DNA of 64,000 nt from an archaeon (lineage in GTDB: Archaea; Methanobacteriota_B; Thermococci; Methanofastidiosales; NM3), in assembly GCA_004212155.1 (NCBI GenBank), contig RXIG01000001.1, forward strand, positions 96,001 to 160,000, in the 5' to 3' direction. The notes beneath the pieces are model-generated. The model made no database searches and had not been told where the DNA came from. It saw only the letters and a program-made list of their open reading frames with translations. A program made the position numbers and the translations under genes. This document shows, one piece after another, positions 8,413 through 14,544 of the stretch. The stretch's first letter is position 1; the number at the start of each line of letters is the position of its first letter.

Positions 8413-8916
8413 GTGATTCTATTGGAGATCAAGCGACGCCATGACATGTCAAAAAGCGATGTGAAGAAATTATTCAATTCGCTTGACACTGCCTATGACG
8501 AGATACCCGTACCGCCGGAGAAGGGACGATATATGTTGTGCGAGACCGACACGGACGTGTCGGTGGTGACATTCGAGGGCACTCCATCGTTCCTGCTTTG
8601 GAAGGACCAGGTCATACCGTCGCTTCATCTCTTCTTGGACCTGGACGTCCGCACGCTCGCCAACAGGGTGATCGTCGACATGGGCGCCATACGCTTCGTC
8701 ACGAACGGCGCAGACATCATGCGCCCCGGCATCGTTGACGTCTCAGCGTCCATTACCGAGAACATGTTCGTCATCGTCGGCGATGAGCGCCATGGGAAAC
8801 CACTGGCCATTGGCATCGCCCTTTATGATGGCGAGACGATCGCGGCCATGAGTGAGGGAAAGGCGGTCAAGAACGTGCATTACGTCGGCGACCCCATTTG
8901 GAACTTGAAAGTTTAG
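8413..8916 (+). CDS. PUA-domain RNA-binding protein (DUF1947/MCTS1-like)
   Basis: VDMGAIRFVTNGADIMRPGI, KPLAIG and GKAVKNVHYVGD motifs. Confidence 0.88.
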   Translation: MILLEIKRRHDMSKSDVKKLFNSLDTAYDEIPVPPEKGRYMLCETDTDVSVVTFEGTPSFLLWKDQVIPSLHLFLDLDVRTLANRVIVDMGAIRFVTNGADIMRPGIVDVSASITENMFVIVGDERHGKPLAIGIALYDGETIAAMSEGKAVKNVHYVGDPIWNLKV

Positions 8917-8924
8917 GTGGCGTT

Positions 8925-10001
8925 ATGAAGATACCACAGCGAAAGGATGAACACATCTACCATACGATGGGTAGCGATGTGACATGCAAGACCCCGGCGG
9001 GGTTTGACGACGTCACGCTCGTCCACAGCGCCCTTCCCGAGATCTCATATGCCGATATCGATACGAGCGTGGAATTATTTGGGAAGCGCATTGATGCGCC
9101 GCTGATGATCTCAGCCCTCACGGGGGGATCTGAGTTGACGGGCAAGATCAACAAATCGCTTGCCAAGCTTGCCCACGCATACAACGTTCCGATATCCGTT
9201 GGGAGCCAGAGGGCGATGCATGCCGAGTCATCGCTTAGGCCAACGTATGAGATTCGTTCATACGCCCCCGATGTGCTGCTGTTTTCGAACGTCGGCATAG
9301 CACAGCTCATAACGATGAGCGACGATGAGGTGGAGCATATGGTGTCGTCCATCGGTGCCGACGTGCTCGCTGTGCACCTCAACCCCCTTCAGGAGGCGCT
9401 CCAGCCTGAAGGCGATACGAACTTTTCCGGCGGCATAGGCCGACTGCGGGAGATAAAGGATGCGCTGTCCATCCCGGTGATCGTGAAGGAGACAGGCGCA
9501 GGCATCTCCTACGAGGCGGCCTCGCGAATCTCGTTCCTTGACGGCATCGATGTGGCTGGAGTGGGTGGAACATCGTTTGCAGCGGTCGAATACCACAGGA
9601 CCACTGACGAGATGCGAAAAAACATCGCCCGCTCGTTCTGGGACTGGGGCGTTCCCACGGTCGCGTCCATCGTCGAATGTATCGAAGTGTTCGATACGCT
9701 GATCGCATCAGGCGGCGTACGAACGGGCATAGACATAGCGAAGTCGGTAGCGCTCGGTGCCACGTGCGCCGGCATCGCTCAACCATTCCTTTCAGCCGTA
9801 TATAAGCGTCCGCACGACGAAGCGAGACACTACGTCGAAACGCTCATCGAGGAACTCAGGATCACGATGTTCCTTGTGGGGGCAGCCTCCATCAACGATC
9901 TCCGCAACGCACCGGTGGTCGTGGGTGGCACGACGCGAGATTATTTATTTGAACGCGGATTCTCGGTTGAATATCTGGCACGAAAAGGTGATATTAGATG
10001 A
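8925..10001 (+). CDS. fni: Type 2 isopentenyl-diphosphate delta-isomerase
   Basis: RKDEHI, GSQRA, HLNPLQE..QPEGD, KETG.G, GGTSF and ASGGVRTG motifs; AGGTGG SD before ATG 8925. Confidence 0.94.
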   Translation: MKIPQRKDEHIYHTMGSDVTCKTPAGFDDVTLVHSALPEISYADIDTSVELFGKRIDAPLMISALTGGSELTGKINKSLAKLAHAYNVPISVGSQRAMHAESSLRPTYEIRSYAPDVLLFSNVGIAQLITMSDDEVEHMVSSIGADVLAVHLNPLQEALQPEGDTNFSGGIGRLREIKDALSIPVIVKETGAGISYEAASRISFLDGIDVAGVGGTSFAAVEYHRTTDEMRKNIARSFWDWGVPTVASIVECIEVFDTLIASGGVRTGIDIAKSVALGATCAGIAQPFLSAVYKRPHDEARHYVETLIEELRITMFLVGAASINDLRNAPVVVGGTTRDYLFERGFSVEYLARKGDIR

Positions 10002-11293
10002 AAGTTTACGCATTGGGCGGTTATGAGGAAGTAGGAAAGAACATGACCGCCATCGAAGTTGATAAGAAAGTACTCATACTTGACATGGGCATCCGCCTCG
10101 ATCGCATCATGATCAGCGAGGATACCAATCTCCAGGACACGTCCACGAAGGAGCTGAACAGGATCGGTGCGATCCCGGACATAGCCCCATTAAAGCGAAA
10201 GAAGGTGGTGGGAGTCGTCGTGTCACACGGACACCTCGACCATATTGGGGCCATCGCGCGCCTTGCCCGCCGTTTCAAGTGTCCCATACTGGGCAAACCG
10301 TACCCGCTCAAGCTTGTGGCCTCCATACTCAAAGAGGAGAGGAAGCCGATGCCAAATCCCCTCTTCGAGGTGCAGGACTCTTCGGTGACCATCGGGCCGT
10401 TCGATATCAGGATCCTGCCTGTCACGCACTCCATACCCCAAGCGGGGTGTGTCGTCGTCTCGACGCCCGAGGGCGATGTATTCTTCACAGGAGACTACAA
10501 GCTGGACAACCACCAGCGACTGCAAAAACCCCTTAAGTTCTCAGAGCTCAAAAAGCTTGACATCAAGATCCTCATCACCGACAGCACGAACGTGCAAAAC
10601 GAGGGTATCACGCCTTCAGAGAAGGTCGCACGCACCCTGGTGAGCGATTACATGGGCATGATCGAGGACTCTGACAAGGGCATCGTCACATCGACGTTCT
10701 CCTCGCAGGTGGAGCGTATACTCACCATCATCGATGAGGCTGAGCGTATCGGGCGAAAACCGGTACTAGTCGGCAAGTCGCTTTGCAAGTACTACGGATT
10801 GGCACTCGAGATGGGCATTATCGACAAACCGGTCCAGATGATACGCAAGCGTGATGCGCTCGAGTCGACGCTCAAGGAGATCAACAAGAAAAAGGACGAA
10901 TATGTCGTCCTGGCTACCGGTTCACAGGGGGAGCAGGACGCCATCCTCTCACGCATCACGGACAAGAAGCTCCCCTATACGTTGGGCAAGGATGACACCG
11001 TCATCTTCTCCGCAAGCGTCGTGCCAAACCCCCTCAACATGGCCGCCCGCTACCGTCTTGAGACCAAGCTCAAGATGCAAGACGTTCGCGTCGTAAAGAA
11101 CCTCCACGTCTCCGGTCACGCAAGCAGGGAGGAGCATCGCAAGATGATACGCACGCTCTCGCCCGACTACGTCCTTCCCTGCCACGGCGCCCCCGACATG
11201 CTCATGTCGATGGCCGAGCTTAGCAACGAGGAAGGCTACTCGATAGGCAGCCAGGCGCTCGTGATGAGAAACGGCCAATCAATCTCCATCTGA
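9998..11293 (+). CDS. rnj: Ribonuclease J (beta-CASP metallo-beta-lactamase)
   Basis: GGYEEVGKNMT, SHGHLDHIGA, HSIP, GDYK, HVSGHA and PCHG motifs; the usual archaeal position after fni. Confidence 0.93.
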   Translation: MKVYALGGYEEVGKNMTAIEVDKKVLILDMGIRLDRIMISEDTNLQDTSTKELNRIGAIPDIAPLKRKKVVGVVVSHGHLDHIGAIARLARRFKCPILGKPYPLKLVASILKEERKPMPNPLFEVQDSSVTIGPFDIRILPVTHSIPQAGCVVVSTPEGDVFFTGDYKLDNHQRLQKPLKFSELKKLDIKILITDSTNVQNEGITPSEKVARTLVSDYMGMIEDSDKGIVTSTFSSQVERILTIIDEAERIGRKPVLVGKSLCKYYGLALEMGIIDKPVQMIRKRDALESTLKEINKKKDEYVVLATGSQGEQDAILSRITDKKLPYTLGKDDTVIFSASVVPNPLNMAARYRLETKLKMQDVRVVKNLHVSGHASREEHRKMIRTLSPDYVLPCHGAPDMLMSMAELSNEEGYSIGSQALVMRNGQSISI

Positions 11294-11309: not shown

Positions 11310-11371
11310 CTCTCAGTTCTCATAAGTATCGTCATAGCGTGAGCTCGGCATTGGATTCATTCATCATCGAG
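11310..11371 (-). ncRNA. Box C/D guide sRNA, sR-tMet-like (predicted Cm34 of CAU tRNA)
   Basis: The minus strand reads CTC-G-ATGATGA(C)-ATGAATCCAATG-CCGA(D')-GCTCACGCT-ATGACGA(C')-TACTTATGAGAA-CTGA(D)-GAG: four boxes, two 12-nt guides and a 3-bp terminal stem. Confidence 0.85.
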
Positions 11372-12091
11372 TGATACCCAGTAATGTATGCTATATCCTC
11401 GTTCGAGGACGACGGTCAGTCGCAGACGGAGCATATGCCCATACGGCTCACCGTCGCGCAGAAGTGTGACCGAACGTATGTCGTCACCGTAGGCTACCAC
11501 CTCCCGCTCGTGGCCGATGAGCGTCTCGGTATACGTTTCGGTGACGGTTCGTCCCTCTACGTCGACGTCAGGCATGGTGAACGCAACCGTCACGCGCTGC
11601 GATGCCTCGTCGTCGACAACTGCATCGCCGGAGATCGACTGATCGACAAGCGAGGCCGCCCATCTGTACGTCTGCGGCGCGCCCTCGCTGTTTGCTATCA
11701 CGAATCCAAAGGAGAACGTCTCCCCGGGATGGACGCTTGAGGGCACGTTTCGAACGACCATCTCTCGTGCGTCATCTGACACGTCCTCGACGCACCACCA
11801 CGTTCCGTGCGCCTCGAACGTGTCGTTGATGTAGAACGGCCCATACGATGTGGCATCATCCATGAGAACGAGGCCGCCATCGTGAGTCGTTGCGGCAAGG
11901 CCATGCCACGCGAGCGGCTCGTCGTCACCGAACACGAGCTTTTCGCCATGAAAGTAGAGTTCCGAAAACGGCGTCTCTGACGCTGGTGCAGTGGCGACAG
12001 AATATGCGATGACCGCTATACCGATGAGCGATGCAGCGATGATGGCACCATACAGGGCATTGGACGAGTCATTCATGCGATGTGCTATCAT
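11357..12091 (-). CDS. Membrane-anchored protein, DUF1616-like
   Basis: N-terminal TM, then PFSELYF (compare DUF1616 E.FTEFY), GFVIANSEG.PQTY and C-terminal IHYWV. Confidence 0.55.
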   Translation of the reverse strand: MIAHRMNDSSNALYGAIIAASLIGIAVIAYSVATAPASETPFSELYFHGEKLVFGDDEPLAWHGLAATTHDGGLVLMDDATSYGPFYINDTFEAHGTWWCVEDVSDDAREMVVRNVPSSVHPGETFSFGFVIANSEGAPQTYRWAASLVDQSISGDAVVDDEASQRVTVAFTMPDVDVEGRTVTETYTETLIGHEREVVAYGDDIRSVTLLRDGEPYGHMLRLRLTVVLERGYSIHYWVSLDDE

Positions 12092-12351: not shown

Positions 12352-12882
12352 ATGGCCTATGAGTGCAATGGAACAGAATTTATATCAATGTATGGCGACA
12401 TAACCGAGCTCGACGTGGACGGCATTGTCATAGCATCGTCTCCCGACCTGAGCATGGATGCGGGGATCGCATGCAAGATCAGGGACACGGGAGGACCTTC
12501 GATCGAGGAGGCTGCGGACAAGCACAAGGGGGCGCCCCCCGGGTCTGTCATCACCACCCATTGCGGCACGCTCGAGGCATCACATCTCTTCCACAGCGTT
12601 ATCCTAGATGGAGACAAGACTGCCGACCCCGACATCTTGCGTTCGTGCGTGAGGGTCATGTTCGAGAAGGCACGCGAGCTGGGGGCCACAACGCTGGCGC
12701 TTCCCGCACTCGGGTCCGCGTTCAAGGGGCTCTCCCCGAAGATGTCAACAGACATCATCGTATCCGAGGCCAAGGCGGCGGTGGAGCAATACGCAGGTGC
12801 ATTCAAGAAGATCTACTTCGTCGTATGCGACCCGACGCCGTACCGATATTACAAGAAAGCGCTCAAGAAGCACTGCAAGTAG
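12352..12882 (+). CDS. Macro domain protein (degenerate catalytic motifs)
   Basis: GDITELDVDGIV, GGPSIEE, PGSVITT..G.L and LALPALGS give the macrodomain scaffold. Confidence 0.8.
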   Translation: MAYECNGTEFISMYGDITELDVDGIVIASSPDLSMDAGIACKIRDTGGPSIEEAADKHKGAPPGSVITTHCGTLEASHLFHSVILDGDKTADPDILRSCVRVMFEKARELGATTLALPALGSAFKGLSPKMSTDIIVSEAKAAVEQYAGAFKKIYFVVCDPTPYRYYKKALKKHCK

Positions 12883-12890
12883 GGGATACC

Positions 12891-13472
12891 ATGGACACAT
12901 CGAAGTTGCCTTCCGCATCATTTCCGACGAAGTATGGCACGTTTTGCATCTATGCGTTCAAGGAAGGGCGCATGGAGCACCTAGCGTTGGTCAAGGGCGA
13001 CGTATGCGACAAGGACGATGTTCCCGTGCGCATTCATTCGCAGTGCATCACTGGCGATGCGCTGGGTTCGTTGCGCTGCGACTGCGGCGTGCAGCTCGAC
13101 CATTCGCTCGAATACATCGGAGCCCAGGACTATGGCATTCTCTTCTACCTGGGCCATGAGGGCCGGGGCATTGGCCTTTTCAACAAGATAAAGGCATACG
13201 AGCTCCAGGACAAGGGGGACGATACCGTCGAGGCAAACGAGCGGCTCGGATTTGAAAGCGATATGCGCGATTACGGCATCGTGGCGGATTTCCTCATATC
13301 GTTTGGCGTGCGTTCCGTTCACCTCATCACCAACAATCCTTCGAAGCTTGACGACCTTACGAGGAAGGGTGTCGCCGTAACTCAACGCATCCCCCTCATC
13401 GTGCCGCCCAACAAGTTCAATGCGTTCTATCTCCAGACAAAGCGAGAGAAGATGCACCATATCTTCGGATGA
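12891..13472 (+). CDS. ribA: GTP cyclohydrolase II (bacterial type)
   Basis: RIHSQCITGDALGSLRCDCG, EGRGIGL.NKIKAY, DTVEAN..LG, RDYG and TNNP.K motifs. Real start is ATG 12891 after AGGGGA. Confidence 0.95.
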   Translation: MDTSKLPSASFPTKYGTFCIYAFKEGRMEHLALVKGDVCDKDDVPVRIHSQCITGDALGSLRCDCGVQLDHSLEYIGAQDYGILFYLGHEGRGIGLFNKIKAYELQDKGDDTVEANERLGFESDMRDYGIVADFLISFGVRSVHLITNNPSKLDDLTRKGVAVTQRIPLIVPPNKFNAFYLQTKREKMHHIFG

Positions 13473-13476
13473 TACG

Positions 13477-14544
13477 ATGTCATGTGACGATGTATATTTC
13501 ATGGGTCGTGCGCTCATGCTTGCGCGCAAGGGTCATCCCTCCCCCAACCCCCGCGTCGGCGCCGTGGTCGTCAGGGACGGTGTCATCATTGGAGAGGGCT
13601 TTCATGAACGTGTGGGCATGCCCCATGCGGAGGTCAACGCAATGAAGGGCATCGATGCCAAAGGTGCAACGCTCTATGTGACCCTCGAGCCATGCTCGCA
13701 CCATGGCCGCACCCCTCCCTGCACAGATGCTATCATCAAGGCAGGCATCGAACGTGTGGTATGTGCCATGCGCGACCCCAATCCAAAGGTTGATGGGTTA
13801 CGGCTTCTCAAGGAAGCGGGCATAACGGTCGAGGCCGGCGTCCTCGAAGCTGAGGCCAGGCGCCTCAACGAGGCGTTCATTCGATACATCGATACCAAAC
13901 GCCCATTCACGGTGCTCAAGTGCGGCATGAGCCTTGACGGCAAGATAGCAACGAAGACGGGTGAATCGAAGTGGATCACGTCACAACCTTCCCGTAAACG
14001 GTCTCGCTTGATGCGGGAGAACTTCGATGCGATACTCGTCGGCATCAACACCGTCTTGGCCGACGACCCCATGCTTCGCTCAGGTGGAACAAAGGACCCC
14101 AAAAGGATCATCCTCGACAGCGCGCTTCGCATCCCGCGAGAAAGCAACGTGCTCTCGGATGGCAACGTGCTTGTCGTCACCACTGGTCGGGCCGATGAGA
14201 CACGATTGAGGGAACTCAGAAACGATGGCATCGAGGTGCTCGTCTGCGGCGAGACGGAGGTCGATCTTGCTGCCCTTCTCAAAGTGTTGGGGGAGCGAGG
14301 CATATCGTCGCTTCTCGTGGAGGGGGGAAGCACTGTCCATGGAAGCTTTGTGATGGCAGGTCTTGTTGACAAGGTGCTTTTCTTCATAGCACCGTTGCTC
14401 ATACCCGGATCGGACGCTTTGAGCGCGGTGGGGGGCGTCGGCATCGAACAGCTCGGAGATGCATTCAGGCTGGGGACGATGAGGGTTCGTCGCTTTGGCG
14501 ACGACATTCTTATTGAGGCATACCCTGCTCAGAGGACTGAGTAG
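13477..14544 (+). CDS. ribD: Bifunctional pyrimidine deaminase/reductase
   Basis: PNPRVGAV, HAE, VTLEPCSHHGRTPPC, SLDGKIA, SKWIT and VEGG motifs. Confidence 0.95.
   Translation: MSCDDVYFMGRALMLARKGHPSPNPRVGAVVVRDGVIIGEGFHERVGMPHAEVNAMKGIDAKGATLYVTLEPCSHHGRTPPCTDAIIKAGIERVVCAMRDPNPKVDGLRLLKEAGITVEAGVLEAEARRLNEAFIRYIDTKRPFTVLKCGMSLDGKIATKTGESKWITSQPSRKRSRLMRENFDAILVGINTVLADDPMLRSGGTKDPKRIILDSALRIPRESNVLSDGNVLVVTTGRADETRLRELRNDGIEVLVCGETEVDLAALLKVLGERGISSLLVEGGSTVHGSFVMAGLVDKVLFFIAPLLIPGSDALSAVGGVGIEQLGDAFRLGTMRVRRFGDDILIEAYPAQRTE

Follow-up and report, generated by a model that had tools for sequence, protein, structure and literature searches.

Our analyses identify, on the minus strand of the window (the whole stretch of 64,000 nt analysed here, of which positions 11371-11310 are concerned), what its sequence indicates is a genuine and complete archaeal box C/D sRNA of 62 nt. 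We consider it probable that this RNA is a guide for 2'-O-methylation of C34 (Cm34) of the sR49/sR-tMet kind, fused to a guide for 16S rRNA, and that the intron of its tRNA target mimics the 16S site and offers the particle a second docking point. The work was carried out in silico and covers anatomy, conservation, covariation, complementarities and machinery genes, from which we infer expression, RNP assembly, the methylations, docking and mRNA processing.

The host genome (1.49 Mb in 28 contigs, 89.8% complete) belongs to the Methanofastidiosales, a methanogen order that is sister to the Thermococcales. A gene for the methyl-coenzyme M reductase alpha subunit is present, and those for fibrillarin (283 bits) and Nop5 (230 bits) are adjacent on contig C16. 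Comparisons were made within the host family (f1), with further families (f2 to f5), and with class-level relatives, which include 97 genomes of ~2 Mb with a Pyrococcus-type sR46.

Anatomy, conservation and genomic context of the sRNA

A box C/D anatomy had been claimed for the minus strand in the initial annotation, and all boxes, spacers and the stem were found to be present, its coordinates being exact. The features of the sRNA and the two genes around it are the following.

11310..11371, minus strand: whole box C/D sRNA, 62 nt (direct reading; Rfam box C/D matches; covariance model, 76.9 bits)
11369..11371, minus strand: 5' arm of the terminal stem, 3 nt, pairing with 11310-11312 and covarying across 17 genomes
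11368, minus strand: single unpaired base between the 5' stem arm and the C box
11361..11367, minus strand: canonical C box, 7 nt, doubling as the D-D-E codons of the upstream gene
11349..11360, minus strand: D' guide, 12 nt, complement of a 16S rRNA site and of a conserved intron block
11345..11348, minus strand: degenerate D' box, 4 nt, with one deviation from the canonical D box (direct reading)
11336..11344, minus strand: D'-C' linker, 9 nt, with a short internal stem whose first two pairs are kept in all seven f1 genomes
11329..11335, minus strand: C' box, 7 nt, with one deviation (direct reading and alignment)
11317..11328, minus strand: D guide, 12 nt, pairing with nucleotides 32-37 of pre-tRNA-Met and three intron bases, position 5 opposite C34
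11313..11316, minus strand: canonical D box (direct reading and alignment)
11310..11312, minus strand: 3' arm of the terminal stem, 3 nt (stem covariation)
11357..12091, minus strand: upstream sense gene of 244 aa, with an N-terminal membrane helix and a weak DUF1616 match (ORF and domain search)
9998..11293, plus strand: convergent RNase J-like gene (beta-CASP 79 bits, Lactamase_B 59 bits, RMMBL 48 bits)

Both spacers measure 12 nt. In the window, one base departs from the canonical form in each of the D' and C' boxes; most relatives have canonical versions of both, with a canonical D' box in all f2 genomes and in every other f1 genome except G001. The linker stem is lengthened in G002 to 5 bp closed by a tetraloop. 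Overall, the sRNA is weakly self-structured and folds less stably than shuffled copies of itself (z = +1.59), as is expected of an RNA whose guides must stay single-stranded.

A covariance model (R1) built from 17 sequences and searched over the 133 genomes of a phylum sample returned 66-82 bits in exactly those 17 genomes, although these are kin to each other, so that this and the other counts across them overstate independence. The next best match reached 45.5 bits and came from the f5 RNAs, which resemble the model in only one of its two halves. By family, the composite sRNA was recovered in 7/7 genomes of f1, 6/6 of f2, 4/4 of f4 and 0/17 of f3. Four elements do not vary across the 17-genome alignment: the D box, the C box from its second base onwards (its first base is always a purine), the D guide core and the 10-nt core of the D' guide. 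The terminal stem, which measures 3 bp in the window and reaches 5 bp among the relatives, shows double-sided changes in all five of its pairs, with 73.8% of the cells paired. It scores 0.401 for covariation, whereas shuffles give 0.144 (none of 500 reaches the observed value) and slid controls 0.02-0.11.

When scanned at gathering thresholds, Rfam gave no match on the sRNA interval. A permissive scan of 401 nt (up to E = 10) returned 10 matches, all of them to box C/D families and nine on the sRNA interval, the best being sR46 (25.2 bits, E = 6.2e-4), sR3 (22.0 bits) and sR-tMet. The comparison with archaeal sRNA models that had initially been advised was therefore borne out in that such models, sR-tMet among them, do match the interval, but not in score, since all 10 matches lie below their gathering scores. 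Membership by score is accordingly not reached for sR46 (RF01130), with 25.2 bits against 50 and only the 5' half well aligned, nor for sR-tMet (RF02163), with 18.9 bits (E = 0.78) against a cut-off of 50.

The sRNA is placed between two convergent genes. The RNase J-like gene ends 17 nt from its 3' end, while the last 15 nt of the upstream ORF lie inside it, the final DDE-stop extending from the C box into the start of the D' guide, of which bases 2-4 are the stop codon. This dual use of C box and D' guide as coding sequence, proposed at the outset, is kept in all seven f1 genomes. A homologous ORF of 240-256 codons with the same four final codons was found in the six f1 loci that reach its start (6/6), the upstream locus of G001 being cut at 144 codons. 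The encoded protein shares 74-84 identical residues over ~240 between divergent f1 genomes, that is, ~31-35% identity between genera. An unrelated upstream gene occupies this place in f2, with its stop within the C box in 6/6 genomes, and no long ORF was found upstream of the sRNA in f4. That the guides remain invariant in three different upstream contexts indicates that the RNA, and not the coding sequence, is what is conserved. The overlap of an sRNA gene with the 3' end of a gene on the sense strand is a known arrangement, according to the available text of PMC7994747 and PMC6009581.

A TATA-like stretch lies ~20-27 nt upstream of the window copy. None stands at a matching distance in four other f1 upstream regions (G003, G005, G002 and G004), which disfavours an independent promoter, and the sRNA is probably released by processing of the upstream mRNA, from its 3' end. 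Further out, ORFs at window positions 8898-10001 and 12352-14544 resemble, by eye, a type-2 isopentenyl-diphosphate isomerase, a macro-domain protein, a GTP cyclohydrolase II and a RibD-like deaminase/reductase.

Pairing of the D guide with pre-tRNA-Met

ARAGORN annotated 40 tRNA genes in the host genome, three of them with the anticodon CAU. The initial annotation presupposed an intron-containing tRNA-Met(CAU), and one such gene was found, with the intron at its canonical place and a sequence of the elongator type common to relatives.

G000:C7:52527-52649, outside the window: tRNA-Met(CAU) with a 46-nt intron at 37/38 (ARAGORN and sequence)

Positions 3-11 of the D guide form nine contiguous Watson-Crick pairs with tRNA nucleotides 32-37 and the first three bases of the intron. 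Hence nine of the ten bases that had been predicted to pair across the 37/38 junction do so, with D+5 on C34. On the spliced tRNA the guide keeps only 7 pairs, and the predicted duplex is ~4 kcal/mol weaker (f1). Both guides were then compared jointly with the 39 tRNA genes that were kept (3412 nt). Each finds its best match in this one tRNA-Met gene, over 9 bp for the D guide and 10 bp for the D' guide, the runners-up reaching 7 bp and 6 bp, respectively, so that no other tRNA gene among the 39 exceeds 6 bp to the D' guide.

The pairing extends to relatives. In each of the 16 genomes in which both loci are available, the D guide forms 8-11 contiguous Watson-Crick pairs with the pre-tRNA-Met of the same genome, and position 5 always falls on C34. 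Most f4 genomes have a third intron base other than that of f1, and the guide carries the matching change; in f2, position 31 is a G that lies opposite a C at position 2 of the D guide. Not every change is of this kind, as four of the seven f1 genomes have an A at guide position 3 against C32, a mismatch and not a compensatory change, which leaves only 8-9 bp. The U32 that would match this G-to-A substitution was sought in these four genomes and is absent, C32 being kept.

As read from the sequence, the bulge-helix-bulge helix uses four anticodon-loop bases, C34 among them, which pair with the conserved 3' terminus of the intron. Since the D duplex needs intron bases and competes with this splicing helix, methylation must precede splicing, and the D guide most likely directs Cm34 of elongator tRNA-Met before its intron is removed. 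An exclusion of this type between guide pairing and the splicing fold is already accepted for pre-tRNA-Trp, according to the available part of PMC7994747.

A second copy of the sequence that forms the 3' strand of the anticodon stem lies inside the 3' part of the host intron (G000:C7:52527-52649), and the minimum-energy fold pairs the 5' strand of that stem with this intron decoy instead of the true strand in the 3' exon. The copy recurs in G001 and G007 and is lacking in the other relatives.

The D' guide, its 16S rRNA site and the conserved intron block

Initially, the D' guide was read as a guide for the intron. It does pair with the intron, but it is not dedicated to it, being a class-wide, sR46-like guide for 16S rRNA that the Thermococcaceae-like relatives also have. 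The Rfam consensus of sR46 matches the C box and the whole D' guide. BLAST searches against 60 relatives showed that the core of this guide adjoins a C box in f1, in f2 and in all f5 genomes that were read out (22), the f4 copies having been read out separately; in f5, the same core is joined to a different D guide in sR46-like RNAs. The complement of the guide core lies within the 16S gene in four of the five genomes checked. An exact site of 23 nt is found in the order, outside f3, where the region is assembled (3/3 in f2 and 1/1 in f4), and the 16S site is present in every relative outside f3 whose 16S was examined. It is thus known from f2, f4 and f5, with an assembled 16S in none of the seven f1 genomes and both the 16S and the 23S rRNA absent from the host assembly. 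In the host family the D' guide would be an inherited 16S guide, with a target extrapolated from f2, f4 and f5.

The pairing with 16S rRNA involves positions 2-11 of the D' guide (10 bp) and puts D'+5 on the first G of a conserved GG, which in G007 lies at ~nt 906 of the 16S rRNA as delimited by the Rfam model. We take this region to be the Arch958R primer site, in helix 31. In f3 the 16S region is available from 13 genomes, and 12 of these show a U-to-C change inside the guide-paired core (e.g. G008:C1:653247-653269); G029 keeps the core, and G024 has, in addition, an exact copy on another contig. The same family has a short tRNA-Met intron in the three precursors read out. Model R1 matched 10 of its 17 genomes at no more than 39.6 bits, the best of these (G032), which was read out, belonging to an unrelated C/D sRNA that has no stretch complementary to tRNA-Met, and when G008 was searched by pattern for a tRNA-Met guide, a single unconvincing match came up; neither search found a Cm34 guide in f3.

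The host intron carries a 10-nt perfect complement of positions 3-12 of the D' guide, in the same register as on 16S rRNA. A complement to the whole 12-nt guide had been predicted; 10 contiguous bases of it are there, the shortfall being due to one extra U in the intron. Such a complement was reached in 56 of 200000 shuffles of the intron. Genome-wide, matches of at least 10 bases to the D' guide occur at 15 sites in ~3 Mb of two-stranded sequence, one of them being the opposite strand of the gene itself, so that a match in a given 46-nt intron is expected ~2 times in 10,000. Matches of 10 bases nevertheless arise by chance somewhere in the genome, which counts against a reading in which both guides grip the precursor.

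All seven f1 introns, of 30-54 nt and from three genera, pair with the D' guide of their own genome over 9-11 bp, and all four f4 introns, from two genera, do so over 11 bp. The longest block common to these 11 introns is a 9-nt complement of the D' guide, flanked by columns (14 to the left and 26 to the right) of 0.2-0.65 pairwise identity. The block always starts 13-16 nt 3' of C34, leaving 5-8 unpaired bases after the D target in 11/11 introns. Together with the two bases on its 5' side, the f4 block is identical to 11 nt of the 16S sequence. Folded to minimum energy, the host precursor presents the block in a hairpin loop. The duplex between D' guide and intron is predicted at -11.7 to -14.4 kcal/mol, at least as strong as the D duplex in all seven f1 genomes and in G009. 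The D'+5 rule would put a methyl on the intron block itself, for which there is no obvious use, and this also counts against a role of both guides on the precursor.

The families compared differ with regard to the block. The 22-nt introns of f2 lack the block, the best run with the D' guide being 4-6 bp in all five precursors found, and the D duplex there spans 10-11 bp. Mean energies of the D duplex are -15.9 kcal/mol in f2, -13.4 in f4 and -10.0 in f1, and those of the D'-intron duplex -1.4, -13.7 and -12.9, respectively. As f4 combines the block with a fairly strong D duplex, the correlation expected if a weak duplex needs an anchor is not clean. The introns of f5 are G/C-rich and without the block (5/5). 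There, a separate sR49-like RNA places its D guide on the C34 site through a duplex of 10-13 bp (5/5) that is richer in G/C than that of the present sRNA; unlike in the latter, its D' spacers differ between genomes and none complements the precursor, nor does any other 8-nt stretch (5/5). These sR49-like RNAs score at most 45.5 bits with model R1. The lineages without the block agree with what is published as usual for tRNA-targeting sRNAs, the use of a single guide (available text of PMC7994747 and PMC6009581).

Two observations on contig C9 of the host genome may be recorded here. A perfect 12/12 complement of the D' guide, one of the 15 sites mentioned above, was found at G000:C9:53873-53884 (minus strand), in an A/T-rich spacer downstream of the gene of a 740-aa repeat protein. 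It was suspected to be rRNA and rejected as such, with no Rfam family and no ORF of at least 100 aa over the site; it is a probable chance match, ~0.2 of the kind being expected per genome. On the same contig ARAGORN called a tRNA-Ala(UGC) with a 1260-nt 'intron' at G000:C9:60056-61405, which is probably a false call, given that Rfam at gathering thresholds detects no tRNA or rRNA in C9:48000-66000.

Proposed mechanism, alternatives and relation to known guide RNAs

According to the model that we favour, the sRNA would be released from the upstream transcript and would probably assemble with L7Ae, Nop5 and fibrillarin into an sRNP. Its D guide would pair with the anticodon loop and the first intron bases of the unspliced precursor, presenting C34 at D+5 for 2'-O-methylation, and its D' guide would direct 2'-O-methylation of 16S rRNA in the helix-31 region, on the first base of the conserved GG. 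In f1 and f4, the D' guide would also hold the intron block, clamping the precursor by two duplexes, of which the second may compensate for a D duplex that is short and A/U-rich. As the target of the D guide lies 5' and that of the D' guide 3', the ends at which the two targets face each other would come to lie on the C'/D' side of the particle, and the linker of 5-8 nt could pass around that side; this geometry presumes the arrangement known from structures of archaeal C/D RNPs with bound substrate. Once released, the precursor could form the helix between its anticodon region and the intron's 3' end and be spliced.

If the second duplex does help, it would provide a testable reason for the persistence and the sequence of the tRNA-Met intron, a natural accessory guide-target pairing in an archaeal sRNP, and a case of an rRNA-site mimic that recruits a modification machine.

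Different scenarios might explain the same complementarities. The two guides may act independently, D on C34 and D' on 16S rRNA, with the block kept for some other reason that gives no help to C34 methylation, such as the folding of the intron, a protein site copied from 16S rRNA, or stabilisation of the excised intron by its own methylation. The D' guide indeed predates the tRNA-Met function, as reflected by the different D guide of the sR46-like RNAs of f5; f2 guides C34 without any intron block, and f4 retains the block despite a fairly strong D duplex. In addition, tRNA-targeting sRNAs usually use one guide (available text of PMC7994747 and PMC6009581), only ~20% of them being dual guides in the account given in the latter. 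We nonetheless regard independent action as unlikely, because the block is the exact complement of a guide on the very RNA that targets this tRNA, because it stands 5-8 nt from the D target in 11/11 introns that have otherwise diverged, and because no other tRNA gene pairs with the D' guide over more than 6 bp.

A scenario that adds a regulatory layer, and that we rate as rather improbable, is that the intron was kept and lengthened as a mimic of the 16S site, so that a bifunctional sRNP would choose between nascent 16S rRNA and pre-tRNA-Met, linking Cm34 and splicing of the only elongator tRNA-Met to the biogenesis of the small subunit; were this true, tRNA maturation would be tied to ribosome assembly through target mimicry. 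Still less credit is given to the block being a regulatory decoy, over which nascent 16S rRNA and pre-tRNA-Met compete for the D' guide, either coupling Cm34 and splicing to small-subunit synthesis or titrating the sRNP away from 16S rRNA. Competition would be favoured by the single register in which the guide fits both RNAs, over 10 bp on 16S rRNA and 9-11 bp on the intron, whereas f2 and f5 manage without the block. As rRNA is far more abundant than one pre-tRNA, titration away from 16S rRNA by the intron is implausible. Finally, box-like motifs and complementarities arising by chance at the 3' end of a protein gene, with no functional RNA, would agree with the sub-threshold Rfam scores and with the coding constraint on the C box in f1, but this is barely credible in view of an element kept in f1, f2 and f4 within three different upstream contexts, of invariant guides beside an f1 protein only ~31-35% identical between genera, and of the terminal stem covariation together with the joint tRNA test.

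The study behind sR49 as a Cm34 guide is said to be that of Clouet d'Orval et al. in 2001, and Joardar et al. in 2011 reportedly described sR-tMet, with an unusual C'/D' motif and a 3' extension. Pyrococcus sR49 is predicted to guide Cm34 of the intron-containing elongator tRNA-Met (cited in the available text of PMC2584109 and PMC7994747), part of the tRNA-Met intron pairing with the sRNA (available text of PMC2584109). The present sRNA is likewise separately encoded, and it bridges exon and intron of pre-tRNA-Met with its D guide, C34 lying at D+5. The haloarchaeal sR-tMet (Rfam RF02163) acts in Cm34 on the intron-containing precursor (cited in the available text of PMC4033218 and PMC6601510), its D guide also putting C34 at D+5, and its model aligns the C' box, the D guide core and the internal D'-C' stem of the present sRNA. 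The latter differs from it in its length of ~62 nt, its canonical 12-nt spacers and a functional-looking D' guide. With regard to Pyrococcus sR46 (RF01130), the 3' half is different, sR46 having another D guide. In its make-up, the present sRNA resembles a composite of the 5' half of sR46 and the guide function of sR49.

More distant parallels are found in which either the modification or the use of two guides is shared. The human SNORD97 and SCARNA97 RNPs 2'-O-methylate C34 of elongator tRNA-Met(CAU) (Vitali and Kiss 2019, PMC6601510); these are eukaryotic, work as two cooperating guides in different nuclear bodies, and the available text of that article mentions neither a target intron nor an rRNA-mimic element. 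Dual-guide rRNA sRNAs of Pyrobaculum address two sites within 100 nt and are thought to aid binding and folding (available text of PMC6009581). They resemble the present case in that both guides bind nearby sites on one substrate, and no guide common to an rRNA site and its copy in a tRNA intron is described in the same part of that source.

RNA-guided Cm34 is therefore already known from Pyrococcus, haloarchaea and humans (in these without an intron), and the bare guide is one more lineage of it. What looks new is the presence of a 16S guide and a tRNA-Met guide on one RNA; an intron that appears to have evolved a copy of the 16S site, kept under selection at a fixed distance from the anticodon; and, apparently, a much stronger primary duplex in the lineage without that copy. 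No description of an intron mimic of the 16S site was found in the literature searched, which did not extend to d'Orval 2001, Joardar 2011 and supplements, and Additional file 5 of PMC2584109, on tRNA-Met guides, may show relevant pairings. The literature on sR46 and on pairing by both guides likewise gave nothing relevant.

A precedent for two guides on one tRNA is the euryarchaeal pre-tRNA-Trp intron guide (sR50), which methylates C34 and U39, both of them exon positions (available text of PMC7994747 and PMC2584109). As proposed for the present case, both guides of one box C/D RNA act on one pre-tRNA, the intron takes part in the duplexes, and methylation comes before splicing. Unlike sR50, in which the guide is the intron itself, the present guide is a separate gene, and its second duplex is wholly intronic and copies an rRNA site. 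The tRNA-Trp(CCA) gene of the host genome, at G000:C17:23468-23645 (minus strand), has a 102-nt intron without the exact C-box core or the D box of the present sRNA. By eye, this intron shows a C'-like box followed by a stretch that complements its own anticodon region in 9/10 bases, and is perhaps an intron-encoded guide like sR50 in degenerate form.
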